Source: a phage. From it: a DNA stretch of 64,000 nucleotides. This document shows, in pieces, positions 7,772 through 55,501 of this stretch. The translations under genes were made by a program, and so were the position numbers. The notes beneath the pieces are model-generated. The model made no database searches, had not been told where the DNA came from, and was given only the letters and a program-made list of their open reading frames with translations. The DNA is taken from assembly GCA_033286805.1 (NCBI GenBank), contig GCA_033286805.1_4727.1; one strand, given 5' to 3'. Numbering within the stretch: the first letter of the stretch is position 1; each line of letters begins with the position of its first letter.

Positions 7772-7902
7772 CGTTGTTCACCTCGTCGTAAAAGTAAATA
7801 GAGTTTTGTCGAGACGCCCTAATTACTTACAACGTCGGTTCTCCCGGCTTCAGAGAATTCTTAAAATCCGTTAGTTTTGATAGATAGGGTAAGACGGCAT
7901 AA

Positions 7903-7923
7903 AAGCCTCCCATTACGGGAGGC
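7903..7923 (-). terminator. GC-rich hairpin followed by TTTATGCCGTC motif
   Basis: AGCCTCCC-ATTAC-GGGAGGCT stem-loop just after stop of 7937-8485; recurrent motif family. Confidence 0.5.
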
Positions 7924-7936
7924 TCCATCAATCAAC

Positions 7937-8485
7937 TTACTTCACGAGAACAGCGAATTCGAGAACGTAAATAGTCTCGTCATCCATCGGATTTGTTGTG
8001 GTATAGCCAGCAAATTGATAGCCCATATCCACGATAAACTCGCTAAGTTTATCGATGACTGATACCCCGATACGATCGTCAACAGACAGACGACATTTAC
8101 GGGTTATGTTTTGCCCGCGAGGAACGCCAGCTAACACGGATAGGAAATGTACGATCCGGTTATTGGTTGCGAACTGCTTGAAATCGTCGTAGTGTTTAAG
8201 GTCTTTCATCGCAGACTCTACAGTCATCCGGCGACCAGGTGATACATACTCAGAATAAGAATAAGCTGCAATCGTGCGGCGGTCTTCAGTGAGGTAAGTG
8301 TTCCCATCAGGATGATAACTTTCGATTGTTCCGTCTTCATAGGCGACGGTCACAACAGGTGCGCCGTATTCGTCGCGACCGAAATCAACTTTACATTTGT
8401 CCGAAAGCGGTAGAATCGTACAAGGCTTTGCATTGTTCTCATCAGGGAGATCGTAACCACTCATCATTTTCAAGAACATAGACAT
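7937..8485 (-). CDS. hypothetical protein, tandem paralog A
   Basis: 182 aa; shares ENNAKPCTILP / FGRDEYG segments with 8572-9105. Confidence 0.55.
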   Translation of the reverse strand: MSMFLKMMSGYDLPDENNAKPCTILPLSDKCKVDFGRDEYGAPVVTVAYEDGTIESYHPDGNTYLTEDRRTIAAYSYSEYVSPGRRMTVESAMKDLKHYDDFKQFATNNRIVHFLSVLAGVPRGQNITRKCRLSVDDRIGVSVIDKLSEFIVDMGYQFAGYTTTNPMDDETIYVLEFAVLVK

Positions 8486-8537
8486 AATAGAACCTCATGA
8501 TAATAGATAATAGAAATGATAGATAGTACAGCAAAAT

Positions 8538-8561
8538 GAGGGGGTATTATCCCACCCCCTC
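8538..8561 (-). terminator. hairpin downstream of 8572-9105
   Basis: GAGGGGGT / ACCCCCTC stem then ATTTTGCTG on minus strand. Confidence 0.45.
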
Positions 8562-8571
8562 GCAGGGATTA

Positions 8572-9105
8572 CTACTTAACGATCGCGATGATTTTACCGC
8601 CCGCACCGGCGTAATATGCCGTTAAATTACCAGTAAACAACTCTTGTAAAAGACGATTTACGTGACTAACAAAGTTAGGATTGTCTGATTTTACAAACTC
8701 GATGTGACGCGTTTGTTTTATATCACGATCGATTAAGCGTATTTCCAACAACGCACGAATGAGGTTATCGTCAAGTTTACCACTTGCATCCAGCACTTCC
8801 CCATACGTCGTAGCACGGACGTCTGCATACATACGGTCAACATCATCCTTCCCAAAACCACAGGAATAGGCATACGTTGCGATGGTATTACCATTATCCA
8901 TCACGTAAACGTTACCGCCTGGGTAATCGATAAATCGTTGATCCTTATCACCATGAGCGACGAACTCCAGTGTCGGTCTACCTAGTGAATCACGATTGAA
9001 TTCGATAGTTGTCAAACGGTCAGGCACCACATGTAACGTAAACGGTTTTGCATTGTTACGATCGCTAGTATCGCAGTTGCCCATTACTTTTACGATAACA
9101 CTCAT
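8572..9105 (-). CDS. hypothetical protein, tandem paralog B
   Basis: 177 aa; DRNNAKPFTLHVVPD / FNRDSLGRPTLEF similar to neighbour. Confidence 0.55.
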   Translation of the reverse strand: MSVIVKVMGNCDTSDRNNAKPFTLHVVPDRLTTIEFNRDSLGRPTLEFVAHGDKDQRFIDYPGGNVYVMDNGNTIATYAYSCGFGKDDVDRMYADVRATTYGEVLDASGKLDDNLIRALLEIRLIDRDIKQTRHIEFVKSDNPNFVSHVNRLLQELFTGNLTAYYAGAGGKIIAIVK

Positions 9106-9179
9106 GTTTTATTCCTTAGTAGTCCTAGTAGTAGTATTGAGGAATTTCACCTCATTAGATAGTCTATTTTGGTAATGTT

Positions 9180-9512
9180 TTACTGAAACAAGACATTAAA
9201 TTCGACGAGATACCCATCGGATCTATCACCACGATATCTGTTGCAGAAAACACCGAATTTCATCAAAAACACACATAACTCTTCGGCTTTGTATAGCGGA
9301 ATACGATTTTCGTCGAGCAGGGGGCACTTATGGCTAACCCGCTCCGACGAATCAACACAACACAAATAAAGAAGGAACCGAACGATGGCTCGGTTCTTAG
9401 TGAAGCTCTCGAATTCACCTGCGGTTCTGAACTCATCGAGGAGCTTTGTCGTTTTCTTCAATCGTTCACGATCAAGCATGTTAACCTCAATACGAACATA
9501 ACCCTCCTCCAA
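9180..9512 (-). CDS. hypothetical protein (track start is TTG; ATG at 9479 more likely)
   Basis: 110-aa ORF; track start overlaps hairpin 9502-9533. Confidence 0.4.
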   Translation of the reverse strand: MEEGYVRIEVNMLDRERLKKTTKLLDEFRTAGEFESFTKNRAIVRFLLYLCCVDSSERVSHKCPLLDENRIPLYKAEELCVFLMKFGVFCNRYRGDRSDGYLVEFNVLFQ

Positions 9513-9533
9513 CCCGTCAGGGAAGGAGGAGGG
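9502..9533 (-). terminator. hairpin after 9543-9857
   Basis: CCCTCCTCC / GGAGGAGGG 9-bp stem. Confidence 0.4.
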
Positions 9534-9542
9534 GATATGCCG

Positions 9543-9857
9543 TTATTCTGTTTTCGGTGTTGAACCGTTCTTCTTGAAGTCGGATTCGTATTTCACGTTA
9601 GAATCGAGAACCTCACGAACGGTTTTATCCGTACAACCACGGGCGATGTATGCATTAAGATCGTCGCGTAATTTACGCATCGTTGTTTTATCCGCATCAG
9701 AAACATCTGACTTGGTAAGACGGAATGCGATTGCATCACGAATTTTATTCAGCGTTGCTGGGTTATTACGCTGCTCTGCAAATACCGCTTTGATGAATGT
9801 ACCGCTATCTTTCGAAGCGATGGCTGCATCAAGAATCTCAATATGCTTTTCAGACAT
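9543..9857 (-). CDS. hypothetical protein
   Basis: 104-aa ORF. Confidence 0.45.
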   Translation of the reverse strand: MSEKHIEILDAAIASKDSGTFIKAVFAEQRNNPATLNKIRDAIAFRLTKSDVSDADKTTMRKLRDDLNAYIARGCTDKTVREVLDSNVKYESDFKKNGSTPKTE

Positions 9858-9908
9858 CTTCTTTCCTTTAATAAACGATCATCGTCATATTCATTGCGCA
9901 GGACGCTA

Positions 9909-11138
9909 TCACTTCGGAAGCTTAGACACCGCCATGCTTCGCGCCATCGCAACGTCATACGCATCCATGATTGCATCACCGATAGCGGTATGACGGATCA
10001 ACGGAATACCCATATCTGGATACTCTTTGGTGCCTAAGATGGATACCGGTTTGTCTTGATATGCGGCAATCATCGAACGAATATCCTGAACCTGGTTATA
10101 ACGGCAGATTGGTTTGAAGCCTGCCTTACGGAACCAATGTTCTAATTGAGGCCAATCTGTTTCACCACGAGCAAGATAATAGAAGGTATCCTTACCGTAG
10201 TAATCAGTAAGCACATCACGAATTGTGTTAACAAACACGTTTACTTCGGTGATGGCTTCTTTATAACCCACCACCTTACAATGTTGAAAACAATAGTCAC
10301 GCGCTTCCTTCGGTGCTTTGGTTTGCCACCATTCTACTGTTGATTCACTGATGCGACCACCGTCAGCGATTTGACCATGAATGTCAGGGAAGATATCTAT
10401 ACGCGGGCCGTTAATAACAGATTCTGGGTTAGCTAGATCGAAGAACACCATACCGATTTCCAGCAGTACCCCGTTCTTTTCCAGACTGAGATTCTCAACA
10501 TCCAGACAAAAAGCGGGCTTCTCTACCGTTGAAAAATCAAAGCGTCCCTCATATCGTGGTGCTAGCTTAGCACCAAGGAACGTCTCTTGGATGAACTGGG
10601 AGAATGTTATATTCTCTGCTACTAAATCAATACCCAATTTACTTAGCAAAGGTATAAGTTCACGGTAGTTCTGCTTAATTAGCAACATTACTTGGTCGTT
10701 GACACAACAACTAATTGAGTAAAAGATATAAAAGATATCTAACGGTTTGTATGGAGCCTCAAAAATATGTTCCTGGAACGATTGGGCCAGCGCTTTATGT
10801 GTTTCCTCACGATGATTCATCAGTCGGTAAATAGCGCAACGCAGATAATGTCGAAGTGTTATCTCGTGAAGATGCGACGTATCTTCTTGAAATAACGTCA
10901 TGAAACCGTGATACGTATAATACTCTCCTCTTTTAATTTCTTCGTGGAGTTCTTTGTTCCCCTTTATTTCTTCTGGTGTTATCGGGTCGATCTGATCATG
11001 GATAATGTTGAGTAGATCGTCGCTGTGTACCTTAAACAGTTTTTCAGCGTCAAGATTAGGTAATGTCGCAATTGCTGCGTACATTAATGTTTCTGCGGGA
11101 TTAAGTTCTTTATTGTCGATTGTGATGGTTAAAGCCAT
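9909..11138 (-). CDS. DEDDh-type 3'-5' exonuclease domain protein with unknown N-terminal domain
   Basis: C-terminal half has Exo I LDVEN and Exo III HTAIGDAIMDAYD (H-x-A-x-x-D-A) motifs; ATG at 11138 with GAGGT SD (track start 11162 is TTG). Confidence 0.55.
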   Translation of the reverse strand: MALTITIDNKELNPAETLMYAAIATLPNLDAEKLFKVHSDDLLNIIHDQIDPITPEEIKGNKELHEEIKRGEYYTYHGFMTLFQEDTSHLHEITLRHYLRCAIYRLMNHREETHKALAQSFQEHIFEAPYKPLDIFYIFYSISCCVNDQVMLLIKQNYRELIPLLSKLGIDLVAENITFSQFIQETFLGAKLAPRYEGRFDFSTVEKPAFCLDVENLSLEKNGVLLEIGMVFFDLANPESVINGPRIDIFPDIHGQIADGGRISESTVEWWQTKAPKEARDYCFQHCKVVGYKEAITEVNVFVNTIRDVLTDYYGKDTFYYLARGETDWPQLEHWFRKAGFKPICRYNQVQDIRSMIAAYQDKPVSILGTKEYPDMGIPLIRHTAIGDAIMDAYDVAMARSMAVSKLPK

Positions 11139-11163
11139 TTTATTATACCTCATCGAAATCAAA

Positions 11164-11505
11164 TTAGTTCAGTTCTGGTTTATTAGCAGCCAGACCAAGT
11201 CCAGCTAATATCACGTAGTCGTACCAAGTTTTTACTTTTGCTTTCGCTTCATCTAAACTATCTGCGTTGATGTGCTGAAACTCATCGTTGACTGGGAAAG
11301 GTAAATCGCAGTCGTAGCTGGTATAATCCTTCCAACCTTTCCATTCGATAGTTAAAGAACCAAAAACGGTCTCAGCGACAACATGGTTATAGCGACAGTT
11401 TTCACATGGCGTACGCTCTTCCGACCAAACAAGCTCATGCTGCGCTAAAAGTTGTTGTACGACCGATAACGGCTGCTCTTCATTAAGTTCGATACTGTCT
11501 ATCAT
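11164..11505 (-). CDS. hypothetical protein
   Basis: 113-aa ORF. Confidence 0.45.
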   Translation of the reverse strand: MIDSIELNEEQPLSVVQQLLAQHELVWSEERTPCENCRYNHVVAETVFGSLTIEWKGWKDYTSYDCDLPFPVNDEFQHINADSLDEAKAKVKTWYDYVILAGLGLAANKPELN

Positions 11506-12098
11506 CGCATACCCTCCTTTTCCTTATCGTAATCACTGCAAATATTGACAAACGCCGTATTATCAGACAGCCTGCTGACCATCTGACGGATTGCGGCCAA
11601 CGGTTCAAGTTTAGGATTGATTGATTCACCGGTCAACGCGCTTATCGCTCGTGTGATCTCAACCAAATCAACGTTCGGGTCTTTGTCATCAATAATGAGT
11701 AAACTCTTCGCCGGTTTCTGACGACGTTTGATGATCAACAAATACGTGATGAGGTTCTCACGCCAAGCGTCAGAATCCAGATTGCGTATCAGGGTTAACG
11801 CACGACGTTCTTCCGCCCACGATGGTTTCTCACGGATAACAGGCATGTAAGATAATTGCTCAGCAAGCCCTTTCAAGCTGACACGGTTGGTGCCGCCAGG
11901 ATGCTCGCTAATCCGCAACATCTCGGTTAACAGACGGACATAGGCGGCTGTTGTCGAAACACCCCTCAGCGGCAGAAACACATTATGTCCTGGAACCCCA
12001 TCGTGACTCAGCGGTGCGATATACGCCATGAATCGCCGAATATCATCATCGGTCTGTTCTCCAGCAACGAACTTAAACGCTTCACGTAAAACGCTCAC
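11502..12098 (-). CDS. hypothetical protein
   Basis: 198-aa ORF. Confidence 0.5.
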   Translation of the reverse strand: MSVLREAFKFVAGEQTDDDIRRFMAYIAPLSHDGVPGHNVFLPLRGVSTTAAYVRLLTEMLRISEHPGGTNRVSLKGLAEQLSYMPVIREKPSWAEERRALTLIRNLDSDAWRENLITYLLIIKRRQKPAKSLLIIDDKDPNVDLVEITRAISALTGESINPKLEPLAAIRQMVSRLSDNTAFVNICSDYDKEKEGMR

Positions 12099-12384
12099 TA
12101 TGAAGTCTCCTTAATGTTTCTTGCATACGTAGTCTCTCCGGCAGGTACAGACGTTTGTATAGATCAATTAACAGATAACGCATAACAGAAGCGACCACCA
12201 GGTATTCACCTTCAGCTTCCGAATAACGTATCATGTTAATTGGGTAATTCAAATAAGAATAAGAAAAGAGATCATCGTTGGTAAGGTGATGATCTTCAAG
12301 ATACTGACGAAACAATTTTGCTAAGGCATCGTACTCCATTCCGTAGTAACACAACGACACCTGTCTTGCAGATAGTCGTTTCAT
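12082..12384 (-). CDS. hypothetical protein
   Basis: 100-aa ORF. Confidence 0.45.
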   Translation of the reverse strand: MKRLSARQVSLCYYGMEYDALAKLFRQYLEDHHLTNDDLFSYSYLNYPINMIRYSEAEGEYLVVASVMRYLLIDLYKRLYLPERLRMQETLRRLHSERFT

Positions 12385-13223
12385 GCTGGGTTACCTTTTA
12401 GTTTTCCACGTAACATGTCGACAACGCGTGAGGGATCAGAAATAACATTGGCGATAAGATGATCGATAGGTAGGTCGAGAATGATATTCTTCAGCTGGAA
12501 AGCCGTATCTTTACGACGCACGCCGTAGAACACGCCATCTTTAAACACAACCTCGTACGAAATGGGGAGCTGGCTAATAACCGTGTTAGCGTAATCACCC
12601 AACCACATCGACCCCGCCATCAGATGCGCACAAACAGCATGACTAATACGCACATCTTTGTTCTTCCGGTTAACGTCTTTGGTTTTCGACATGGTAACCA
12701 GAAGCTCACCGATCTTACTCAGCATATCGTCGTATACCCCAAAGAACTTAATCAGTTGTCGGGCACCTAACGATATATATGTTTCTCGTGGTAAGACACA
12801 ACACACCTGCGGTAACGTTCCAACACCATAGACACAACTGTGTGGTGATAATGGAAGCAAATCAGCAACCGCGTTCTTGATGTTGTTATACTCAACGATA
12901 TCGTTGAACGGTGAAAGACCTTTCGTAATCGGTTTATCAATCGCCACATCGAACTCCGCGAACGTCCATGCTGCTTTACGCGGTTCCCCTTTCTGGTACG
13001 GTGGAGCCAGTACCGCGACAACACGAAGTCGATGTTCATGGGTATCACGTAGCTTAAGTTGGATACCCTCACCGTCACCCTCACGCACAAGTGAGTAGCG
13101 GCTTGCGCAGTCATCACATACCACCGTTGGTTCGTGTTGACCGTATGCTGCAAGCATCGGTTTACTAAGATCTTTATCACAGTGTTTACAGCGATGATCC
13201 TGTTCCTGATAACTGATTTTCAC
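12381..13223 (-). CDS. zinc-ribbon-containing hypothetical protein
   Basis: 280 aa; N-terminal CKHC...CDDC pair. Confidence 0.5.
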   Translation of the reverse strand: MKISYQEQDHRCKHCDKDLSKPMLAAYGQHEPTVVCDDCASRYSLVREGDGEGIQLKLRDTHEHRLRVVAVLAPPYQKGEPRKAAWTFAEFDVAIDKPITKGLSPFNDIVEYNNIKNAVADLLPLSPHSCVYGVGTLPQVCCVLPRETYISLGARQLIKFFGVYDDMLSKIGELLVTMSKTKDVNRKNKDVRISHAVCAHLMAGSMWLGDYANTVISQLPISYEVVFKDGVFYGVRRKDTAFQLKNIILDLPIDHLIANVISDPSRVVDMLRGKLKGNPA

Positions 13224-13238
13224 ACCGAGACCCCTTTG

Positions 13239-14195
13239 TTAATGCAAGACACGATCTGCTGGAATTATCGAGGCATTGCTGTCGGACAGATTCGTCGCTT
13301 TACGATCAGGACTGAATCGACGAGCGTTCTCTTCATGGTAGTTGACGGGGTTATCCTGTTTTAACAGTTCCATTGCCTCATCAAACGTTAGTTCCCGAAA
13401 TCCTCTTGGATAGAGGAACAGGGGTTCATCAACATCCAGCCCTTTAACAAACCCGTGTGACAACCAGACGCTACCATCAGCACTGTAAAGAACCGGCTCA
13501 ACGTCATAATCCAAGACGTATTGATACCAGTAATTAAACAGTTGGGCGATCCATCGATTACGTAATAAATAATCGATTACAACCGCACTACGCACGCTGT
13601 GGCACCAGCCGATCTTACCATCAACTTTCTGCAACAACGTACCCTCATTTGCTTGATGAATAACCGCATTAAATAACCACGCGAGATCGGTTGCGAAAAG
13701 TGCGGCTTCTTGAATATCGCTAATGTAACGCACGGGTATCGTCAGATGCGTGCGGTAATGCGACATCGCCTCTTCGTAGTTGTCTCCTTCGATGCAGAGA
13801 GTCCCGTTTGGTGACAGATGTCCCTGATTCAACGACTGACCAATATAAAGATCAGCGATCGCGTTAATATATTCGACGGTGCCCAAGGTTAACTCAGACA
13901 TAAAAGAATCGACATCAACAGCCATCGATGTGCTGGAAACAAACGGATTGGTTGGGCGAGTTGTATTAGAGAAAATAATCGACCAAATCGCTTCGTGTTT
14001 TTCATCCGATGGCATAAACGAAATATGGCGTTCCGCGCTATTATCGACAACAAATACCTTTACGGTTTTCAAGCAGTTAGTACAAACATAGCACGTGTTC
14101 GGCAACGGCATATCCGAAAACATATCGTAACGAATAGATGCCAGCGAAATGTCATGTCCGCAATGAGGGCATGTCGTATCAATAAGCGTTTTCAT
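13239..14195 (-). CDS. zinc-ribbon-containing hypothetical protein
   Basis: 318 aa; N-terminal CPHC...CYVCTNC. Confidence 0.5.
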   Translation of the reverse strand: MKTLIDTTCPHCGHDISLASIRYDMFSDMPLPNTCYVCTNCLKTVKVFVVDNSAERHISFMPSDEKHEAIWSIIFSNTTRPTNPFVSSTSMAVDVDSFMSELTLGTVEYINAIADLYIGQSLNQGHLSPNGTLCIEGDNYEEAMSHYRTHLTIPVRYISDIQEAALFATDLAWLFNAVIHQANEGTLLQKVDGKIGWCHSVRSAVVIDYLLRNRWIAQLFNYWYQYVLDYDVEPVLYSADGSVWLSHGFVKGLDVDEPLFLYPRGFRELTFDEAMELLKQDNPVNYHEENARRFSPDRKATNLSDSNASIIPADRVLH

Positions 14196-14458
14196 TATTG
14201 AATTCCTTTTGATAAGAATAACTGAATATCGGTAAACTGTTCTTCAGGAACATCGTCAGCAGCCGTTAGAACCTTAGAGCCATGTTCATTGAGGTAAGCT
14301 TCCCGTAGACAACGATGACGTCGATTGGCTTCCTGGAACTCAGTGTCCGTCATGTAAACCAGCGTAAACTTCGAACGTTTATTCGGATTGTATCTCTTAT
14401 TACGTTTCTTTGGTTTCTTCGCCATAATAGCCTCGTGAAGGTGGATGGATACACCCAT
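14195..14458 (-). CDS. hypothetical basic protein
   Basis: 87-aa ORF with KKPKKRNKRYNPNKR stretch. Confidence 0.4.
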   Translation of the reverse strand: MGVSIHLHEAIMAKKPKKRNKRYNPNKRSKFTLVYMTDTEFQEANRRHRCLREAYLNEHGSKVLTAADDVPEEQFTDIQLFLSKGIQ

Positions 14459-14473
14459 CCACCTTCCTCCATG

Positions 14474-14995
14474 TTAAAGTGCGTTCAATTCTTCAGGTGT
14501 ACGTACAGTACGCGTGTTGGGATCAACCATTGCTGGCACACCCGCTGGACATTTACGGACATCGATCCGCATCTCCGGTTCGATCGGACGAACGCGATAC
14601 GTTTTGCCATCATCGGTTAACACCGAAATGGTCAACGCTTGGTTCAATTCACTAACGAAGTTCACCAAACGTTGTTGTCCGCCCTTCGACCAGAAGTTAA
14701 GATCGGTTTCTCCATTGAAATAACTGATTCCATCAGCGGTTCCAATCGTGATTTTAACGATACCCGGATAGTCACGAAGAAGAGGTGCCTGATAACCTTC
14801 ATCTTCCGTATCCAGTTTTACCCACACGCCTCCCGTAGACAAACAGTTAACTTCCAAGGCGGTTGGTGCGCTGACTTCCGCCGATGACCAGGTATACATC
14901 GTGCCTAGTTTAGCGTGTCCGGTTTCCAGCTCGCTGTAATCCCAAGCATGTGCTGATGCCGTAACAAATAAAGCCGCAAGAAACAACTTTTTCAT
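14474..14995 (-). CDS. secreted/periplasmic protein (Sec signal peptide)
   Basis: N-terminus MKKLFLAALFVTASAHA with AHA-W cleavage-type site; 173 aa. Confidence 0.6.
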   Translation of the reverse strand: MKKLFLAALFVTASAHAWDYSELETGHAKLGTMYTWSSAEVSAPTALEVNCLSTGGVWVKLDTEDEGYQAPLLRDYPGIVKITIGTADGISYFNGETDLNFWSKGGQQRLVNFVSELNQALTISVLTDDGKTYRVRPIEPEMRIDVRKCPAGVPAMVDPNTRTVRTPEELNAL

Positions 14996-15050
14996 TCTTT
15001 TCGATTCCTATTAAAAGTGACCGATTTCTGTGGTCGAGATTGCTAATAAA

Positions 15051-15512
15051 TTAATTCCGGTTTTGTTTCCGTATTGCACGGTTACGTTTACGTTCTTGGT
15101 CTTTGACTGTACCAAGAAACTTCTTTAATTCTGACGGTTCGAGTGTACCCTCACGTACCACACCGTTTTGTTCGATATGGTACGACCAATAACCAACTTC
15201 AGCCGTTAAGGATAACGTTGTCGGTTGTTCGTCAGGTAACGATCGGGGTGAGAAAATAAAGAGTAATTCAAAAGGCGTTTCTCGGCTGATGGTGGGACGG
15301 ATACTAACGTCAAGACCCTCCCATCGCTGAGGTTTAAATATTCCTCCAGCAGCAATGATTGTCTCCGAGCGTTGATCTACAAGCTCGGCTAATTCACGAT
15401 CATCGTTGAAATAAATATCGTGAAGAATATCTGTGTCGATAAAAAACCCGCGTTCCAAATCGTGACGAACAATGGAATTCTTCATTCTGCTGCCTTTGTT
15501 GTTTGTTTTCAT
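15051..15512 (-). CDS. hypothetical protein
   Basis: 153-aa ORF. Confidence 0.45.
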   Translation of the reverse strand: MKTNNKGSRMKNSIVRHDLERGFFIDTDILHDIYFNDDRELAELVDQRSETIIAAGGIFKPQRWEGLDVSIRPTISRETPFELLFIFSPRSLPDEQPTTLSLTAEVGYWSYHIEQNGVVREGTLEPSELKKFLGTVKDQERKRNRAIRKQNRN

Positions 15513-15561
15513 GTCCTATACGAACACGAAAAACCGTTAATTTTTACCATAACCACATGCG

Positions 15562-15837
15562 TTAAAATTCCACACCGCGACCCGTCATCGACGAAGGAAC
15601 CGCGCGATAATAGAAGTAGATGTAATGGTCACGATGGCTAAAATAGTTTTTGCAAGCATAGAACTCTCCAGATCCAATGAATGATTTAATACGTGTAACT
15701 TGAGGGTGTCGTGCGATTAACGCCTGTATGACGATTTCCATTTGGTGTGCGCTCAAACCAGGTCGAGCTGCAACATGATAATGAAGCTCCCTAAGAAATC
15801 GTTTCCAGGGATCAGGTTGTGTCGATGATCGAGACAT
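15562..15837 (-). CDS. hypothetical protein
   Basis: 91-aa ORF, AAGGAG SD. Confidence 0.45.
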   Translation of the reverse strand: MSRSSTQPDPWKRFLRELHYHVAARPGLSAHQMEIVIQALIARHPQVTRIKSFIGSGEFYACKNYFSHRDHYIYFYYRAVPSSMTGRGVEF

Positions 15838-15875
15838 CTTTATCTCCTTAACGGTTGCTGGTAACGCGGCATAAA

Positions 15876-15893
15876 CCCTCCCCGAAGGGAGGG
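15876..15893 (-). terminator. GC-rich hairpin followed by TTTATGCCGCG motif
   Basis: CCCTCCC-CGAA-GGGAGGG immediately after stop of 15904-16461. Confidence 0.5.
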
Positions 15894-15903
15894 TGATTAA
15901 CGA

Positions 15904-16461
15904 TTACTCCATCCATACTTCTTCGTCGTAATGATTTTCTATCGCATTACGCCAAAAACGCACGGTGTCCAAACTAATCGGCGCATAAAAATGCTGATCA
16001 ACGCCGACATTAAGTCCGTTGGCCTTCGCTAACATACAGCGATGAATATGACCGAATAGATTGAAGTAGCCTGGGTTTCTTTCGCTGGGCTTATGGCATA
16101 GCCAGTAGGATTCGTCATTGCTAATCGGCAACACCAACGGATGTTCATAAACCGCAGCAAACCCCATACCGAGCAATTTATCACGCCATGCTTCAAAGCT
16201 TAATCCTGTTGCTTTGTATGCGTCTTCGTCCCAATTCCCCAATACCAATTGAACCTGGATATCAGAACGAATGGCTTCCACGAACTCGAACTTACCCCAA
16301 TCACCTAAATGCCATAACACACTGTTCTTTGGAAGCTTGTTGATGGCTTTCAGCATATGCTGGTTCATATCGGCGACGCTTGCGAACGGACGGCGTGAAT
16401 ACGTCCATGTACGCTCGCTATCAAAATGGGTATCCGACATAAAGAAGATGGACGGGGTCAT
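15904..16461 (-). CDS. calcineurin-like metallophosphoesterase
   Basis: Ordered motifs MSDTHFD, LGDWG, GNWDE, GHIH typical of metallophosphoesterase fold. Confidence 0.65.
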   Translation of the reverse strand: MTPSIFFMSDTHFDSERTWTYSRRPFASVADMNQHMLKAINKLPKNSVLWHLGDWGKFEFVEAIRSDIQVQLVLGNWDEDAYKATGLSFEAWRDKLLGMGFAAVYEHPLVLPISNDESYWLCHKPSERNPGYFNLFGHIHRCMLAKANGLNVGVDQHFYAPISLDTVRFWRNAIENHYDEEVWME

Positions 16462-16940
16462 TGATCTAATTGCTCCAGAAATGCACGACCCGATTTACTT
16501 GCTTTTAAATGCTGTTCTGCGGAAGTAAGCAGAAGATCGGTTGGTGTATATGCAGCGCTACCTTTCCACGCTGTTTTCAGTTTACCCTTTTCGATACTGA
16601 ACTGAATCAGTTGTTGGGTACCGAAGTTAAGCGTGTTCGTCGCGGCGCTAAATACACCACCCATCATGCTGTAACCAAAGACTTTCACGTTTTCCGTGTA
16701 GAAGTCATTGTCGATCAATTTGTTCTGGAGCTCGAGTTGGTCGGACGGCAGCAATCCCCCATCGAAGACGCTTAAAATACCAGCCAGGCGATACATACTC
16801 ACCTTTCCTGAAACGCCCACCACGTAGTTGCCGTACACGGTTTCTTCCAGTTTAGCAACAACGGTGCGATCGTCGGAGGTTTTCATCGAAACCTCAATAC
16901 CATCACCAACTTCTGTTAACGTTAAATCAACGATACTCAT
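16458..16940 (-). CDS. hypothetical protein
   Basis: 160-aa ORF. Confidence 0.45.
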   Translation of the reverse strand: MSIVDLTLTEVGDGIEVSMKTSDDRTVVAKLEETVYGNYVVGVSGKVSMYRLAGILSVFDGGLLPSDQLELQNKLIDNDFYTENVKVFGYSMMGGVFSAATNTLNFGTQQLIQFSIEKGKLKTAWKGSAAYTPTDLLLTSAEQHLKASKSGRAFLEQLDQ

Positions 16941-16962
16941 TCATTATTCTCCGCTTTCATGT

Positions 16963-17649
16963 TTAACACATGATTTCACCATGTTTCTTTTCAACATACG
17001 TATAAACGTCATCCAAATAAGCAATGAGTTTATCACGATCCGCACAGAGCGATTTAATCATCGCAATCTCTTTCATATAAAGCTGCTGACCTAACGCCGG
17101 ATAGGTAATCCAAGCGTAGCCGTCAGGCGCAAATTTAGAAATAAGATAATCGGCGGTTTCCTGTAATGCGAACTCTTTGCTCATCTGGCCGTAACGATGT
17201 TCGATTGCACGGATACCAAAACGTTCGCTATCGAGACGACCCATATCCGCCAGACGAAGCACCTGAGAAGCAACAGAACTACGTGGACCAGAGTGCGAGG
17301 CACGATGTTCAGCAATAAGTACGCGTATCTCCTCGATGTCTTCCGGTGTGAAAATATCCTGCTCGTTACGAAGCAGGATAACCGATGCACGAATACCACC
17401 GATAAGGTGGTGGTATGTTCTGTTTTCGTGGCAAGCGATATCATGCATAAAAGCAGCGGTTAATAGACGACGACGTTCCGTGGGTCTGATGATCCCAACC
17501 ACATCAGCAAGTTCATTTGCCAGTTCAACAACAGCAAGCACATGTTCTTCTTGATGTGCAAGATCGTTCTTCCGAATATTTTCAATTACTTCAGCGCGAG
17601 TTTCCTGAGATAAGAAATTTAAACAATCCAACGAATATAAAGATTTCAT
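16963..17649 (-). CDS. HD-domain phosphohydrolase-like protein
   Basis: H...HD...H...D pattern (EEHVLAV ... AAFMHDIACHE); preceded by early-promoter-like motif. Confidence 0.45.
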   Translation of the reverse strand: MKSLYSLDCLNFLSQETRAEVIENIRKNDLAHQEEHVLAVVELANELADVVGIIRPTERRRLLTAAFMHDIACHENRTYHHLIGGIRASVILLRNEQDIFTPEDIEEIRVLIAEHRASHSGPRSSVASQVLRLADMGRLDSERFGIRAIEHRYGQMSKEFALQETADYLISKFAPDGYAWITYPALGQQLYMKEIAMIKSLCADRDKLIAYLDDVYTYVEKKHGEIMC

Positions 17650-17690
17650 CGCACGTACCTCTTTGAATCTATTAATAAATTTTCTTTACT

Positions 17691-17716
17691 CACGTAAGTA
17701 ATATAGCCGTGAAAGG
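17691..17716 (-). promoter_or_regulatory. early-promoter-like motif copy 1
   Basis: Minus-strand TTTCACGGCTATATTACTTACGTG ~48 nt upstream of ATG 17649; four near-identical copies in window. Confidence 0.45.
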
Positions 17717-17793
17717 ATTTGTGTTGGTCCGTTTCGATGCCCATCGTATTTTATGGATTGTCGAATGACGTCATTTTAAGGGACATCCCCGGC

Positions 17794-17827: not shown

Positions 17828-17857
17828 ATCATACATTCTATTAAATCGAGCGCGATT

Positions 17858-21513: not shown

Positions 21514-21546
21514 CTTCCTCCCTACCCATAACGGGCGGGGAGGAAG
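21514..21546. terminator. bidirectional hairpin between convergent genes
   Basis: CTTCCTCCC / GGGAGGAAG stem flanked by A12 upstream and T-rich downstream. Confidence 0.55.
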
Positions 21547-28125: not shown

Positions 28126-28239
28126 AATCTCATTTCCTCTTATACGTTAGGATAGATGACATGTTGGATATACGTTGCCTTTGCATATATTGCTTTATTT
28201 CCGTCAGAAATAACGGAAAATAAAAACAACGACATAATT

Positions 28240-28269
28240 CCCTCCCACCTCCACATGGGAGAGGGAGGG
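28240..28269 (-). terminator. hairpin after 28283-28645
   Basis: CCCTCCC...GGGAGGG imperfect stem followed by T-rich tract on minus strand. Confidence 0.45.
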
Positions 28270-28677: not shown

Positions 28678-29103
28678 TTAAAACTTTAAAACTTTTTCGA
28701 TACGATGGTTGACGAGTTCATTGAACGACTCTTCAGCTTGTTCGATGATTTCATCAACGTCGATATCTAATTGTTGGGGTTGGATAACATGCTCTTTCAT
28801 GGTTTCCAGCCAGTATTCGGCTTTAATCATGACGTTAGCGACGTGTTCGACCTGGCTGCGTATGTCGACGATCTGGCAGTCAGGATTGTTAATATCGATG
28901 ATGTGTCCGTGGTGGTTGATAAAACCTAGCTTATTTGATGCCCTTACCGCATCGCGGGTAAGTTCTTGCAAGATTAAATTATTAACGTAGTTCACTGCTA
29001 CGGAACGATTTTCGTTATCACTCATACCAGGGATCCTCTTTAAGTCATCACATTCTAGTGTTAAGCAGTTAAAATAAACCGTTCCTTTTATCAGCATAAA
29101 CAT
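28678..29103 (-). CDS. hypothetical protein
   Basis: 141-aa ORF. Confidence 0.45.
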   Translation of the reverse strand: MFMLIKGTVYFNCLTLECDDLKRIPGMSDNENRSVAVNYVNNLILQELTRDAVRASNKLGFINHHGHIIDINNPDCQIVDIRSQVEHVANVMIKAEYWLETMKEHVIQPQQLDIDVDEIIEQAEESFNELVNHRIEKVLKF

Positions 29104-29132
29104 CCTCCTCCCACCACATGGGTAGGAGGAGG
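29104..29132 (-). terminator. hairpin followed by TTTATGCTG variant
   Basis: CCTCCTCC / GGAGGAGG stem after stop of 29144-29554. Confidence 0.45.
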
Positions 29133-32124: not shown

Positions 32125-32153
32125 CCCTCCCACAGCGTAAAGCGTAGGGAGGG
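32125..32153 (+). terminator. plus-strand GC-rich hairpin followed by TTTATGCCGTCG
   Basis: CCCTCCC / GGGAGGG stem; same motif family as minus-strand copies. Confidence 0.45.
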
Positions 32154-32184
32154 CATTTATGCCGTCGTTCGATGACTTAATACA

Positions 32185-33465
32185 TCAGAAACGATTCACA
32201 GTACGTCCTGTCCACGCGCTCAGGATGTTGTTACGTTCCATCTCAGCACGACGACGTAAACCGTTTGGCGACTGCGGTGCTTGCGGCATCCCCCATCCAG
32301 CCGGTTGCATACCCATGCCCGGCCAAGCAGCGTTATTGAACATCGTACCGTTACGTTCCGCAACACGGTTCATCAGCGCATCAAACGTGCTATTACCTGC
32401 CGGTTGGTTACCGCCGCTTTCCCACTGATTAGGTTGGACAGGTGCGGTTTTACCTAACAGGTTATCGATCACACTGCCTGTTGAAGCAGGACGCGGTTGC
32501 ATACCTTCATGTGCAGCTGCTGATGGATTTGGCTTAACCGTCGGCTGCGGACGACTGTTCAGCGTTACACCCATGTTGTATTTCGCTGGCGGAATCTGAC
32601 CACGATGTTGATTGATCGGTTCAAAATCCTCAACCCAGGTAACATCACAATAACCGTTCTCTTTACCGTCGTACTTATCACCAAACAGTTTGATGAGATT
32701 GTTCAGCGGTTCCATCAGCTTAGCGAAGCTGTGGATAAGACAATCGAAATACGGAGCATGAGGATCGCTTGACCCAGCGTTGTACGTTTCGCTTACTTCA
32801 CCCGCGTGCGGGATAACGTACTCAACCAGGTTTCTCAGCATGTTAAGATCTTTCTTGGAAATCTCAACACCACACCAGTACGTTTTCTTATCTTTCGTGC
32901 TGATATGTTCTTCTTCCATGAACGGGAAAGTAACGACCGCAACACGGGTCATCTTCTTACCCATGTAGGTTGCACCAGTACGACGAAGATAAATTTTAGA
33001 CAACGTATACGGTGTGTCACGTTTCAACCAAACGGTGACCAGTTTACCTAACGTCGTTAGCGTTTTATCGCTGGCGTCCGCAAGGATGTTGAAGAACTCT
33101 TTTTGCTTCGGTCCGAAACGTTTTGCTTCTTTAGGGTTGATTGCGGTTTCAACCATCCAAATCAACATGGAGCACAGCGTGGCATTAAAACGAACAACCA
33201 TCGCACGACGCAGGAATTGAAGGACTTCCGATTCGCCGTTCATCACGTCTTCACTTAGCGGATGGAACAGCACACGTTCAGCCAGCTGATTTCCGGTACG
33301 GACTTCGGAAACCGGCATAAGCAACGGCATGCTTTCCACGGTAGCGGCAACTGCAACAACTTTACCATCCCCATCCGTAAAACGATATTCTAATTCGTGG
33401 GCGTCATTCTCAAAATAGTTAACGCTCTGTAGTGCTTTGCGATAAGCTTCGATAAGCTTCGACAT
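32185..33465 (-). CDS. hypothetical protein with low-complexity G/P/Q-rich C-terminus
   Basis: 426-aa ORF. Confidence 0.5.
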   Translation of the reverse strand: MSKLIEAYRKALQSVNYFENDAHELEYRFTDGDGKVVAVAATVESMPLLMPVSEVRTGNQLAERVLFHPLSEDVMNGESEVLQFLRRAMVVRFNATLCSMLIWMVETAINPKEAKRFGPKQKEFFNILADASDKTLTTLGKLVTVWLKRDTPYTLSKIYLRRTGATYMGKKMTRVAVVTFPFMEEEHISTKDKKTYWCGVEISKKDLNMLRNLVEYVIPHAGEVSETYNAGSSDPHAPYFDCLIHSFAKLMEPLNNLIKLFGDKYDGKENGYCDVTWVEDFEPINQHRGQIPPAKYNMGVTLNSRPQPTVKPNPSAAAHEGMQPRPASTGSVIDNLLGKTAPVQPNQWESGGNQPAGNSTFDALMNRVAERNGTMFNNAAWPGMGMQPAGWGMPQAPQSPNGLRRRAEMERNNILSAWTGRTVNRF

Positions 33466-42855: not shown

Positions 42856-42897
42856 GATTGTCCTCGTTTTCAATTTTAAGATTGCATGCGGCATAAA

Positions 42898-42922
42898 CCC
42901 TCCCCGCCTTATGCAGGGAGGG
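42898..42922 (-). terminator. GC-rich hairpin followed by TTTATGCCGC motif
   Basis: CCCTCCC / GGGAGGG stem after stop of 42938-43576. Confidence 0.5.
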
Positions 42923-43576: not shown

Positions 43577-43591
43577 TACAGGCGTCCTCCT

Positions 43592-45834: not shown

Positions 45835-45858
45835 GGGAGGGAGGTTGCCCTCCCTCCC
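45835..45858 (-). terminator. hairpin after 45885-47780
   Basis: GGGAGGGAGG-TTGC-CCTCCCTCCC 10-bp stem. Confidence 0.5.
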
Positions 45859-47780: not shown

Positions 47781-47845
47781 TTGGGATTCCTCTTTTCTTA
47801 AACTTTATTAAATGACGTCATTGAATCAGCTTCTACTCGCTCATT

Positions 47846-47870
47846 CACCTAGGTAATATAACCCTGAAAT
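47846..47870 (-). promoter_or_regulatory. early-promoter-like motif copy 4
   Basis: Minus-strand ATTTCAGGGTTATATTACCTAGGTG ~73 nt upstream of ATG 47780. Confidence 0.45.
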
Positions 47871-51349: not shown

Positions 51350-51424
51350 AAATCCTCCAAAAGTTATTTAGTCTGTCTACATCATCTCGTATATCTGTTA
51401 AAAAAGAAGGACGGCATAAAAAAG

Positions 51425-51452
51425 AACCGATCCAGCCGAAGCCAGATCGGTT
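51425..51452 (-). terminator. hairpin followed by TTTTTTATGCCGTCC motif
   Basis: AACCGATC / GATCGGTT stem. Confidence 0.45.
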
Positions 51453-51648
51453 AAAAAAGGATAATAACTGACAGAAAGATATCGATGATGTTCGTGAAAC
51501 AAGATCTTCTCTCGTGTACAATGATGCTAGATCAGAGGGAGGTTGTAACACGAGAGGTGGTCCGCCAAAGAAGGAATAAAAACACGAACCTATCTTATTT
51601 CACTGATGGCACTAACCACTCAAAATATATAGTACCGTATGTAAAAGT

Positions 51649-52922: not shown

Positions 52923-53379
52923 GAATTCCTTCTAGCTCGAGGTTATTCTCGCCCGTCTTCGGTAATAACCCACTGGCCGTTAACATCTGCGTCATCGAGT
53001 AGTCAAAGCACGGAAATATCAGGTTAACGGTTTCCTGGATCGCGTCAACATAACTATAAATGGCTTCATAATACTCACCGTCATGATCTACACTAACCAG
53101 TTCCTGACACAGTTCTTCGCTTATCATTTCATATACCGGTGGATACCATGATTGAAATGGTCGCTGCATACGTAACGACCAATACTCGTACGTCGTATAC
53201 TGAAGCACGTCGTAAGCCGATACGTTAATGCGGTCGAAGAAAGCATACTTGTCCATATGCTGATACAACATCGCCAGCACGGTTTCCAAGCACACCGATA
53301 TCCGCACGCCGTCATCTTTCCCGTTAAGAAAATTAGGTTTCTGCCGATAACGCACAAATGCCGACGGCTTTGATTGCAT
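52885..53379 (-). CDS. hypothetical protein (start trimmed to ATG 53379, TAATG overlap)
   Basis: Track ORF 52885-53460; internal ATG gives 1-nt overlap with upstream stop. Confidence 0.4.
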   Translation of the reverse strand: MQSKPSAFVRYRQKPNFLNGKDDGVRISVCLETVLAMLYQHMDKYAFFDRINVSAYDVLQYTTYEYWSLRMQRPFQSWYPPVYEMISEELCQELVSVDHDGEYYEAIYSYVDAIQETVNLIFPCFDYSMTQMLTASGLLPKTGENNLELEGIHGYVAFFNIECG

Positions 53380-53930
53380 TATTCCACCACCAACCATAAC
53401 GTCATACTCGTATCTAACGTAAAATTGAAATGCCACCAATCTTCTACACGTGGAATCCACGTACGAAGGATTTGGTTAACTTCGCTTCGCATCACCGATA
53501 AACGACAACGAAAATCGAACTTCTCATCATGACCGTAGTCTTCATGCATGAAAACTTCATCCAAAACGAACTCAAGTTGCATGTCGACATCACGACCAGA
53601 GATATTCCGTTTGTACAAATACAACTCAATCGTGTCGTAAAGCAACGTATGAATATCATAATTTCCGTTCGGTGAGAAATAAGGTAATCGCTCATCGAAC
53701 ATCGAAAACAGATATTCGCTGTAGTTTAATAACGGGATGATGTACCGACGCCCTGTCTGTGGTGTGCGAATATGTATCGAAACCTGACTTGGGCGCGGAA
53801 TAACCGACGGCTTAGAATCGTCTCTCTGAAATTGCTCTAAAGATCGCAACAAAGGTGGCCGCATTGTAACTCTCCAACGCCCAATTGTAAGGCCCTTCCA
53901 ACATGTGTTCCCATACGTGAATAAACTCAC
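53379..53930 (-). CDS. hypothetical protein (start uncertain)
   Basis: 183-aa ORF. Confidence 0.4.
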   Translation of the reverse strand: MSLFTYGNTCWKGLTIGRWRVTMRPPLLRSLEQFQRDDSKPSVIPRPSQVSIHIRTPQTGRRYIIPLLNYSEYLFSMFDERLPYFSPNGNYDIHTLLYDTIELYLYKRNISGRDVDMQLEFVLDEVFMHEDYGHDEKFDFRCRLSVMRSEVNQILRTWIPRVEDWWHFNFTLDTSMTLWLVVE

Positions 53931-54441
53931 TACCGAAGACAGGCTCTAGCGCCATAGTGAGATTCGTAAGTTCTGACGCGGCCGCATGGTAAGCATCAAC
54001 ATGTCTTTCCATTGACGGATCGTCTTCATTGAAAATACGTTCTGTATCGCCAGCGCGCTCAATAAGTTCGGTAATGAGATCTGTCCATGTCTCGTGACAC
54101 GTCATCATTTCCTGTTCTCGACTTAGTATGCCGATGTCTGCGTGGACGCTGGACTCGAACCGGTCTAAAAGGACCCGAAGAACGTGCACCTTGTCGATGT
54201 ATTTCACCGTTATCCAAGAAAGCGGTTGCCACCGACTCAGCATCCATCCGGTACTCGGGAACCCCAAACTCATATAGTACGGGTTGCACCGGACCGAAGA
54301 CGGAGCGACGTTGTTTAAATCGCTCCTTAAGGGCAAGGCCTTGTTTAATATAAACGGGTTCATTGGCGAGTTGTTCCGCTTTTCGTTTTGCGTGAGCCAA
54401 TCGAAGTTCTTCCAATTGCCCAAGCCATTCAAATTGTTCAT
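53812..54441 (-). CDS. hypothetical protein (start uncertain; likely internal Met)
   Basis: 209-aa ORF overlapping 54059-55036 by 383 nt as drawn. Confidence 0.3.
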   Translation of the reverse strand: MNNLNGLGNWKNFDWLTQNEKRNNSPMNPFILNKALPLRSDLNNVAPSSVRCNPYYMSLGFPSTGWMLSRWQPLSWITVKYIDKVHVLRVLLDRFESSVHADIGILSREQEMMTCHETWTDLITELIERAGDTERIFNEDDPSMERHVDAYHAAASELTNLTMALEPVFGSEFIHVWEHMLEGPYNWALESYNAATFVAIFRAISERRF

Positions 54442-55036
54442 CTGTTAGCTCCTGGGGACGTTCAACAATCGCGCCAGACGGGCAGATATTGATCGTAATG
54501 TTAATTGACGGCATCGCCATCACTCGAGGATTACTATTACGTACGCGGACAACGTGTTCGGTTGCTGATTTACGATCGACGCAATACTCTGTTTCTTGGA
54601 ACTCAAATGCTTTTAACGGCGCTGGTTTTGTTTGACGTTTAGGAACGCGACCAAGATCAACAATATAGGCATAATCGCACACACGTTCTATTCCGTAAAT
54701 ACGGTTATCCGACCAGTTCTTACCAAACAGCTTGTTGTGATGATAAGACAAATATTCGGTTACCATACCCTGGACAACATCGAAGTCTTCTCGAAATTCG
54801 GGTTGGTACCAAATCGGGCCGAGAATATCTGCGAACGATTCATGACGATATCGAGGATCATGTCGAGTCCAGGTCATTCTCTGGTTAAGATCGAAATCCA
54901 CCAACAACTCGGTTAATTGCAATTTTTCCTTCGGAGAAAGCTGGCGTTGATGATGCAAACTCAGGCAATCGATAAGCGGTAATGAAACCCACGATGCTAA
55001 TGTGTACAAATCGATCCTGGCTAATCTCTTGGTCAT
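54059..55036 (-). CDS. hypothetical protein
   Basis: 325-aa ORF. Confidence 0.5.
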   Translation of the reverse strand: MTKRLARIDLYTLASWVSLPLIDCLSLHHQRQLSPKEKLQLTELLVDFDLNQRMTWTRHDPRYRHESFADILGPIWYQPEFREDFDVVQGMVTEYLSYHHNKLFGKNWSDNRIYGIERVCDYAYIVDLGRVPKRQTKPAPLKAFEFQETEYCVDRKSATEHVVRVRNSNPRVMAMPSINITINICPSGAIVERPQELTDEQFEWLGQLEELRLAHAKRKAEQLANEPVYIKQGLALKERFKQRRSVFGPVQPVLYEFGVPEYRMDAESVATAFLDNGEIHRQGARSSGPFRPVRVQRPRRHRHTKSRTGNDDVSRDMDRSHYRTY

Positions 55037-55127
55037 ACTCTTTTCCTAAGTCCCCATTGTTTATACACACGATATCTGGGAATAGTTAAAATATACGGCG
55101 TAAAACGAAGCAGGAGAGTTTCTGACG

Positions 55128-55448
55128 TCATTTTCTCCCTCTTCGAATACCACCGATACCTCTTTCGTCTAAGACGTCCCAAGCACGCTTTATTTCATCC
55201 TCCGTTGCTCTGGTATCTGGAGGGACAACCATAACACAGTCGTGGAATGGCCAATGTGTAGGTCTGGGGTTAGCGAACAAATCATCCCATTCAAATGTCC
55301 ATTCTTTCTTTGAGCGATTGTAGTAGAGCGTAAGGTACGTGTTGGTATACGCCGGATAACCGCGCATAACTTCAATATCCTTACGATCTTGCCGTTCCTG
55401 ATTCCAATCGTTAAACCGCTTTCTTATTTTCTCCCACCACTTTCCCAT
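55128..55448 (-). CDS. hypothetical protein
   Basis: 106-aa ORF; AGGAG SD; TTTATGCCGTC motif 20 nt upstream. Confidence 0.5.
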   Translation of the reverse strand: MGKWWEKIRKRFNDWNQERQDRKDIEVMRGYPAYTNTYLTLYYNRSKKEWTFEWDDLFANPRPTHWPFHDCVMVVPPDTRATEDEIKRAWDVLDERGIGGIRRGRK

Positions 55449-55470
55449 GCTTTCTCCTAGACGGCATAAA

Positions 55471-55492
55471 AGCCTGCCCCGAAGGACAGGCT
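55471..55492 (-). terminator. hairpin followed by TTTATGCCGTC motif
   Basis: AGCCTGCCC-CGAA-GGACAGGCT stem after stop of 55502-55702. Confidence 0.5.
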
Positions 55493-55501
55493 CGATAGAA
55501 C

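Follow-up and report, generated by a model that had tools for sequence, protein, structure and literature searches.

A recurrent GC-rich hairpin with a TATG-containing tail in a Goslar-like jumbo phage, a probable member of the intrinsic terminator family of the Chimalliviridae

The DNA considered here is a stretch of 64,000 nucleotides (nt) from a phage (contig GCA_033286805.1_4727.1 of NCBI GenBank assembly GCA_033286805.1), which is called the window in the following. Over 7 kb it was 98.4% identical to Escherichia phage vB_EcoM_Goslar, position 1 of the window corresponding to about position 125,119 of Goslar. The homologous Goslar region carries genes for the nuclear shell protein, the tubulin PhuZ, several RNA polymerase beta-like subunits, DNA polymerase and many hypothetical proteins. 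Because of the shell protein, PhuZ and the RNA polymerase beta-like genes, the window phage is assigned to the nucleus-forming, phiKZ-like jumbo phages (Chimalliviridae), as a close relative of the E. coli phage Goslar. A preliminary description of the window had guessed at a phiKZ-like phage, which is borne out by the identity and gene content of Goslar. Searches of the window gave no Rfam family at its own threshold and no tRNA. Between the genes a module recurs which consists of a GC-rich hairpin and a short conserved tail (in short form, hairpin+TTTATGCCGT); it belongs very probably to the family of intrinsic, i.e., hairpin-dependent, terminators of the nucleus-forming jumbo phages.

The sequence TTTATGCCG was found in six exact copies in the window versus 0.68 expected, and six copies were reached in none of 100 shuffles. 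A hairpin with a minimum free energy (MFE) of -16 to -26 kcal/mol (z -2.5 to -5.4) precedes each copy by 0-4 nt. These six sites, designated S1 to S6, had been listed in the preliminary description, and all of them proved to be real; the list was incomplete, since four further sites (X1 to X4, see below) are also located in the window. The stem CCTCCC/GGGAGG, which had been regarded as common to all sites, is present in S1-S4, but not in S6 (GCCTGTCC/GGGCAGGC) or S5 (AACCGATCTGGC/GCTGGATCGGTT). Similarly, the hairpin stands directly past a stop codon, as claimed, at five sites (gaps given as 5-14 nt) but not at S5, and the claim of a start codon 20-120 nt further on fails for S3, which lies at a convergent junction without a co-oriented gene downstream.

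The hairpin of S1, AGCCTCCC-GTAAT-GGGAGGCT, is located at 7904..7924 on the minus strand (free energy of folding, dG, -20.5), 12 nt past the stop codon of the gp143 homologue (7937..8485), and its tail, TTTATGCCGTC, at 7893..7903; 121 nt separate the tail from the next start codon (7771). S2 (15876..15893, minus strand, dG -16.3) has the hairpin CCCTCCC-TTCG-GGGAGGG about 10 nt past the stop of the homologue of the metallophosphoesterase gene (gp157); its tail, TTTATGCCGCG (15865..15875), reads TTTATGCTG in Goslar, which is a C/T difference at a Y position. On the plus strand, S3 (CCCTCCC, a loop of 15 nt, GGGAGGG; 32125..32153, dG -17.9) follows the stop of the gp172 homologue by 5 nt. This gene faces the gp173 homologue (32185..33465, minus strand), and the tail of S3, TTTATGCCGTC at 32156..32166, is conserved in full without any plus strand gene downstream; when the hairpin is read on the minus strand, TTATC follows the stem. 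S4 (minus strand, dG -26.2) consists of the hairpin CCCTCCCTGC-ATAAG-GCGGGGAGGG at 42898..42922, 15 nt past the stop of the gp184 homologue, and the tail TTTATGCCGCA at 42887..42897.

S5 (minus strand, dG -18.3, z -5.4) has a stem that is off the norm of the family, AACCGATCTGGC-TTCG-GCTGGATCGGTT at 51425..51452, followed by CTTTTTTATGCCGTC at 51410..51424, the only tail of the six with a canonical long T run. It is situated upstream of the homologue of DNA polymerase gp244 and about 195 nt past the stop of the gp243 homologue. The intervening stretch (51453-51648, minus strand) is without a convincing open reading frame (ORF) and could be either a long 3' untranslated region or an unannotated small RNA or peptide. 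S6 (minus strand, dG -19.2) has the hairpin AGCCTGTCC-TTCG-GGGCAGGCT at 55471..55492, about 10 nt past the gp235 homologue, which is itself downstream of PhuZ; the tail, again TTTATGCCGTC, is at 55460..55470 and is separated by 11 nt from the start codon of the next gene (55448). In the GenBank record of Goslar, S1, S5 and S6 are already marked as "putative transcriptional terminator".

At least four sites with looser tails bring the total in the window to at least ten, three of which are thus annotated in Goslar. X1 is a long palindromic hairpin, CCCTCCTCC-AACCCGTCAGGGAA-GGAGGAGGG, at 9502..9533 (both strands, dG -28); its minus strand tail, TTATGTTCG, belongs to the terminator of the gp146 homologue, and its plus strand tail is GATATGCCGTT, the reality of the corresponding small plus strand gene, gp145, being uncertain. 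X2 (21514..21546, dG -27.5 and -25.0) is a bidirectional terminator at the convergent junction of gp161 (plus) and gp162 (minus), with the tails GTTTATGTC on the plus and ATATGCTAT on the minus strand. X3 (28227..28266, also listed as 28239-28266; dG -21.5) and X4 (29090..29132, also listed as 29104-29132; dG -24.9) are both on the minus strand, with hairpin TCCCTCTCCCATGTGGAGGTGGGAGGGA and tail ATTATGTCGTTG, and hairpin CCTCCTCCTACCCATGTGGTGGGAGGAGG and tail ATGTTTATGCTGAT, respectively.

The module belongs very probably to a chimallivirus-wide family which has already been described in phiKZ and 201phi2-1. For phiKZ, ONT-cappable-seq (ONT, Oxford Nanopore Technologies) yielded 61 mapped intrinsic terminators with the motif 5'-BCCYCCCCHWWDGGGRRGGBYTTATKYYGT-3', in which TTAT comes after a stem-loop (Putzeys et al. 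2024, Microlife, PMC10914365); for 201phi2-1, a closely similar terminator motif A (n=59) was reported, which is often lengthened by a motif B into a longer hairpin (Microb Biotechnol 2024, PMC11512511). S1 (7894-7923) shows two mismatches to the full 30-nt phiKZ motif (0 expected), and the 3' halves of S2 and S4 show one mismatch each. Stem arms of the type CCYCCC(C)/GGGRRGG are present in S1-S4 and X1-X4, S5 and S6 having other GC-rich stems, and the 3' flank BYTTATKYYGT has its counterpart in TTTATGCCG(T/C), 0-4 nt past the stem at all six sites. The copies are placed 3' of genes in the direction of transcription, with bidirectional ones between convergent genes (S3 and X2 are convergent). 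The phage background is likewise that of the motif, namely a phiKZ-like phage with virion and non-virion multisubunit RNA polymerases, according to the Goslar identity and the annotated RNA polymerase beta-like subunits, shell and PhuZ.

When 50 kb of phiKZ were scanned, the same module was encountered, for example as GCCCTCCC-GTAAT-GGGAGGGC-TTATGCTGT at convergent junctions, where the opposite strand reads ATTATG. A scan of IMG/VR for the plain pattern GGAGGNNTTATGCCGT gave many chance matches in small contigs, and the evaluation was restricted to matches that lie in jumbo contigs or have a complementary CCTCC arm; about 30 were preceded by such an arm, largely in contigs of 227-316 kb. The RNA polymerase, helicase, DNA polymerase and PhuZ of the window have counterparts of about 30% identity in several of these loci, which also contain additional copies of the module which were outside the selection by the search pattern. 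In one locus (L122) a terminator is found downstream of a PhuZ homologue, which is only roughly syntenic with S6. A positional orthology that had been considered for a terminator upstream of the DNA polymerase homologue in another locus (L077) was dropped, as the coordinates put the terminator one gene further off.

An alignment of 82 distinct instances from five sources showed covariation in the stems, where several positions have 4-6 pair types. Past TAT, the tail has G in 82-85%, Y in 82-85%, Y in 94-95%, G in 69-74% and T in 63-70%, and the same conservation was seen in the 67 of 82 instances that lay outside the selection by the search pattern. Such likeness could in principle stem from copying rather than from function, the module being a dispersed mobile or recombinogenic repeat similar to repetitive extragenic palindromes or miniature inverted-repeat transposable elements. 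There are indeed many near-identical short intergenic copies, and long palindromes recur almost verbatim in Goslar (CCCTCCTCCAACCCGTAAGGGAAGGAGGAGGG). The likeness is, however, limited to about 30 nt; the stems vary between copies and the tail is constant; the same tail occurs in phages with a protein identity of only about 30%; and the placement relative to genes is strictly orientation-dependent. Origin from a mobile repeat is therefore extremely improbable, and it was rejected, as there is no longer repeat family and there are no terminal repeats or target duplications around the sites.

Membership in the terminator family is given functional content by the RNA ends of 201phi2-1. Eight transcript 3'-end coordinates are printed in the main text of the 201phi2-1 report (PMC11512511), and at these coordinates each of the eight ends maps to the second Y in TAT(G/A)Y[Y]GT. 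Seven lie 8 nt and one lies 10 nt past the stem, and the conserved G is the next base in seven; examples are ggcctcccttcggggaggcTTTATGA[C]GTT and gcccagcc...ggctgggcTTTATGC[T]GTT, the latter at a convergent junction. The same eight elements all terminated transcription in vivo in a terminator trap in uninfected P. chlororaphis (PMC11512511). The suggestion in the preliminary description that the hairpin is an intrinsic terminator is thus supported, as the same motif was mapped at transcript 3' ends of phiKZ and 201phi2-1 and the eight 201phi2-1 examples terminate in vivo. By analogy with these ends, the 3' ends of RNAs in the window are predicted at C7896 (followed by G7895) for S1, C15868 for S2, C32163 for S3, C42890 for S4, near C51413 for S5 and at C55463 for S6.

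Because the 3' ends of 201phi2-1 fall within the tail, on its second Y, the conserved tail in the window would by the same analogy be the release tract of the terminator itself together with the first untranscribed bases, and not a separate element. In the nascent RNA a GC-rich stem would form, its 5' arm usually rich in C/T and its 3' arm in G/A; the last bases transcribed, about 8 nt past the stem, would be U(U)UAUGYY; and release of the transcript would take place at the second Y, the conserved G being the next base. With a G in the 3' arm about 10 nt upstream, the YY|G step would correspond to a pause of the G-10/Y-1/G+1 type. This consensus (PMC6062546) acts on multisubunit RNA polymerases from bacteria to mammals (PMC6336406), and a pause of this kind could position the multisubunit RNA polymerases of the phage for hairpin-driven release and offset the short U run.

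A different use of the same sequences would be a recognition or processing site, in which the stem and UAUGYYGU are bound by a phage protein or nuclease and the mapped 3' ends are processing products; 3'-end processing, mRNA stabilisation, export from the phage nucleus and factor-assisted termination are roles that could be proposed. The stem sequence is biased beyond the needs of pairing, 73-75 of 82 top pairs having C on the 5' arm; the conserved tail is shared by different genera, and conservation runs 2 nt (G, T) beyond the mapped 3' end. Against this, the eight 201phi2-1 elements with the motif stop a downstream reporter in uninfected P. chlororaphis, where phage proteins are absent (PMC11512511), the 3' ends are at the canonical 7-9 nt from the stem, and a candidate protein was not identified in this analysis; such a site appears quite unlikely.

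Release at the second Y also bears on the possibility that the module is a signal for translation, GGGAGG of the 3' arm acting as a Shine-Dalgarno sequence and the ATG of TTTATG as the start of a leader peptide (M-P-S...). GGAGG stands 4 nt before this ATG, ATGCCGTC would encode Met-Pro-Ser, and the Goslar gene gp183 is annotated from the ATG within the tail of S4 (42894-42892). The putative peptides, however, are unrelated in length and sequence (9, 10, 11, 18 and 89 amino acids), the GGAGG is buried in a stable hairpin (-16 to -26 kcal/mol), a terminated RNA has only 2 nt beyond the ATG, and the codon after the ATG varies in phiKZ and Goslar (CTG, TCG, TTG). As to gp183, there is an in-frame ATG at 42855, 13 codons downstream of the annotated start and with a GAGGA ribosome-binding site of its own, and a start there is more plausible than at the ATG inside the tail. 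The leader peptide is extremely improbable and was rejected on account of the unconserved peptides, the sequestered Shine-Dalgarno sequence and the position of the RNA ends.

The tetranucleotide TATG in the tail deserves separate consideration. Late promoters of phiKZ, which are used by the non-virion RNA polymerase, consist of TATG alone, with G as +1 and every base required (Yakunina et al. 2015, PMC4666361), so that the preliminary description was correct in centring these promoters on TATG (PMC4666361). The beta-like subunit gp123 of phiKZ binds TATG on the non-template strand, in a pocket under the gp123 beta-lobe (PMC12809450). The mapped late promoters show no conservation on either side of TATG (PMC4666361), and the model late promoter p119L is AT-rich and without a hairpin.

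A genome-wide count of the motif, which had been put forward in the preliminary description as a check, was run on the complete genome of Goslar, with strand-specific readings of strong hairpins and TATG within 5 nt past the stem. TATG was present in 45 of 119 intergenic readings versus 4 of 132 (3%) coding ones (p=7e-13). Among the intergenic readings, it followed 39 of 72 (54%) hairpins in terminator orientation versus 6 of 47 (13%) in the opposite orientation (p=6e-6), and it was similarly frequent at tandem junctions (19/39) and at convergent junctions or the genome end (20/33; p=0.35). The ORF-based gene caller lacked small plus strand genes (the gp145 and gp172 homologues), so that S3 and the plus strand reading of X1 were labelled "anti-oriented" in the table for the window and were corrected by hand from the Goslar annotation; the genome-wide Goslar contrasts are therefore conservative. 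Past the last gene of Goslar there is another copy, with only poly(A) and the genome end beyond it.

Promoter function is not supported as the cause of tail conservation. Co-oriented genes downstream are lacking at S3, on both strands of X2 and at the copy at the Goslar genome end, and the flanks of the TATG are not those of a late promoter, since a GC hairpin stands upstream and YYGT downstream. The preliminary description had taken TTTATGCCGYC for a separate promoter core or a processing site; this is not supported by the mapped 201phi2-1 ends, which lie inside the tail, nor by the distribution of TATG, which goes with the terminated transcript and not with the downstream gene. The module could still serve as terminator and promoter at once, if the non-virion RNA polymerase also used the TATG of the tail as a start of the late type (+1 at G) and thereby restarted transcription for the next gene. 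TATG alone suffices to define phiKZ late promoters, with +1 at G (PMC4666361), a start at the G would give plausible leaders of 17-127 nt with a ribosome-binding site at the tandem sites S1, S2, S4, S5 and S6, the G after YY is present in 76% of tandem versus 35% of convergent sites (these being small numbers), and TATG is so strongly avoided elsewhere in these genomes that its retention in the tail is of note. This double use nevertheless appears unlikely. TATG is as common at sites that lack a co-oriented gene downstream, its occurrence depends on terminator orientation, and the known late promoters have neither conserved flanks nor, in p119L, anything but AT-rich DNA without a hairpin. The GC-rich stem would occupy about -5 to -30, where the polymerase presumably must hold and melt the DNA; separate elements resembling early promoters (TTTCACGGCTATATTAC) exist in the genome; and no start sites at the motif are reported in the text of either transcriptome paper (PMC10914365, PMC11512511). 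The RNA-seq paper on Goslar contains no analysis of promoter or terminator motifs.

Few tetranucleotides are as under-represented in these genomes as TATG/CATA, yet right after terminator hairpins TATG is strongly enriched. The ratio of observed to expected occurrences was 0.70 in the whole genome of Goslar (the third lowest word, after CTAG and GATC), 0.66 and 0.58 on the sense and antisense strands of its coding regions, and 0.74 in the window. It was 0.78 for 50 kb of phiKZ, and among the chimallivirus-like loci of IMG/VR, with 0.77, no other word was lower; unrelated viral loci of IMG/VR and 50 kb of T4 gave 0.92 and 0.89, respectively. This avoidance fits the notion that the transcription machinery of the phage reads TATG as a signal, which is therefore kept from unwanted places; whether it means stop, start or both is not decided by the avoidance. 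The overlap between terminator tail and late promoter is not remarked upon in the text of either transcriptome paper (PMC10914365, PMC11512511). Since the pocket which recognizes TATG is part of the core enzyme and not of a detachable sigma factor, an elongating polymerase could engage the TATG of the tail by means of its promoter pocket, which might result in a sequence-specific pause, so that a very short U tract would be enough for termination, or in immediate re-initiation, the terminator being coupled to a restart. This is a tentative idea with a small chance of being correct. If true, it would explain why one tetranucleotide occurs at both the starts and the stops of chimallivirus transcripts, as well as the avoidance of TATG/CATA. 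The overlap with the late-promoter core and the avoidance also bear on the specificity of a promoter of 4 nt.

A promoter-like element of another type, TTTCACGGCTATATTACYT (TTTCACGGCTATATTACYTAnGTGA), was noticed on the minus strand at 17690-17714, 36745-36769, 42024-42048 and 47845-47869, with a weak copy at 63826-63850. It is located upstream of genes, the copy at 47845-47869 being upstream of the shell-protein gene, and from its sequence it looks like the AT-rich early promoter type (virion RNA polymerase) of phiKZ-like phages. In upstream regions of Goslar, ATATTAC/TATATTA were the most enriched 7-mers. AT-rich promoter-like sequences (e.g., GATTTATAT... and TATATTAC) are found about 20-40 nt past the tail in many cases in 201phi2-1 and the IMG/VR relatives.

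Other intergenic hairpins in the window resemble terminators and are without TATG. One of them (45835-45858, minus strand), between the genes for the shell protein and RNA polymerase, has reversed polarity of the arms (GGGAGGGAGG...CCTCCCTCCC) and the tail TTATAC; others are at 6521-6540, 8538-8561, 19944-19973 and 60946-60969. At both ends of the deposited linear genome of Goslar, a hairpin+TTATGCCGTC is followed by about 16 nt of poly(A) (L003 1-50; L006 47246-47307), which suggests that the record begins and ends within a terminator or a terminal repeat.

Two differences from Goslar outside the module were also observed. The helicase ORF at 22861-25491 (minus strand) encodes 876 amino acids versus 524 for Goslar gp164; the additional segment contains a LAGLIDADG homing-endonuclease domain (amino acids 353-435; Pfam LAGLIDADG_3, E=1.9e-6), and a match to Hom_end reached 21.0 bits, slightly below the cut-off of 21.1. 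The insert is probably an intein or an in-frame insertion of a homing endonuclease which is not present in Goslar. The region 43576-44533 is without the HNH endonuclease gene and the annotated group I intron that adjoin an RNA polymerase beta-like gene in Goslar; instead, it contains a direct duplication of about 370 nt (43820-43901 / 44196-44277, 84%; 44106-44165 / 44474-44533, 75%), which takes in the 3' end of the polymerase gene.

For the annotation of Goslar-like and other chimallivirus genomes, an orientation-aware rule for the ends of transcription units can be given, namely (T)TATG-YY-G directly past a GC hairpin, the RNA ending before the G. It also draws attention to doubtful gene starts and to small ORFs annotated across terminators. 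The conservation of the tail between phages of Pseudomonas and a phage of E. coli, together with the position of the mapped 3' ends at the Y|G step, suggests that the unusual sigma-less or sigma-fused RNA polymerases of jumbo phages use a defined pause-and-release signal in place of a long U tract.

Compared with canonical intrinsic terminators of bacteria, the module shares a tract with U past a GC-rich hairpin (MFE -16 to -28 kcal/mol, z -2.5 to -7.6), release in the relatives occurs 8 nt past the stem (10 nt in one case of eight), and the 201phi2-1 elements work with the host RNA polymerase in the terminator trap. It differs in its short U tract, which has 4 U in 8 nt (UUUAUGCC) and is broken up by the conserved bases A, G, YY and G, and in that the stem sequence itself is conserved. 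Several such points weigh against the assignment to intrinsic terminators. At least five U in the 8 nt past the stem, as in canonical terminators, were found only in S5 (TTCTTTTTTATG); the other five sites have four T (TTTATGCC), and a generic scan of 1-20000 for a hairpin plus a T run did not call S1 and S2. Termination may thus be partial in efficiency or specific for certain polymerases. The conserved G of TATG and the conservation of the stem in sequence, and not in structure alone, go beyond a plain model of hairpin and U tract, and membership is argued from sequence and from mapping in phages with proteins only about 30% identical. As for the pause, which we infer, if the mapped end is taken as -1, the module agrees with the consensus elemental pause in Y-1 and G+1, and S1, S2, S4 and S6 also have G-10 and G-11 from the 3' arm. 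S3 and S5 are without G at -10, and the extended consensus (G-11 G-10 T-3 G-2 Y-1 G+1) fits in its core only, T-3 G-2 being replaced by T-4 G-3, one position off; pausing by chimallivirus polymerases is a putative feature here. In addition, ONT 3' ends are accurate to a few nt, so that release exactly before the G is an approximation.

With the phiKZ late promoter the module has in common the tetranucleotide TATG at every site. In the module, TATG is held between the GC hairpin and YYGT, on the terminator side regardless of downstream genes, and the 3' end of the RNA in the relatives is 2 nt beyond it.

The closest counterparts are the motifs of phiKZ and 201phi2-1, from which the window phage differs in some respects. 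It belongs to the Goslarvirus group infecting E. coli, with 45% GC, versus phages of Pseudomonas. K of the motif is nearly always G here and YY mostly CC or CT, the stems of S5 and S6 have drifted from CCTCCC, and long palindromic hairpins of 32 nt with an inner CCC/GGG stem are common in Goslar. In the relatives, 3' ends map to the tail and the elements terminate in vivo; in the present analysis, membership by sequence, dependence on orientation and independence of downstream genes were shown. The likeness comprises the stem CCYCCC/GGGRGG, the short loop (often TTCG or GTAAT) and the following YTTATG-YY-GT, together with the position after genes, the bidirectional palindromes at convergent junctions and a phage equipped with two multisubunit RNA polymerases and a phage nucleus.

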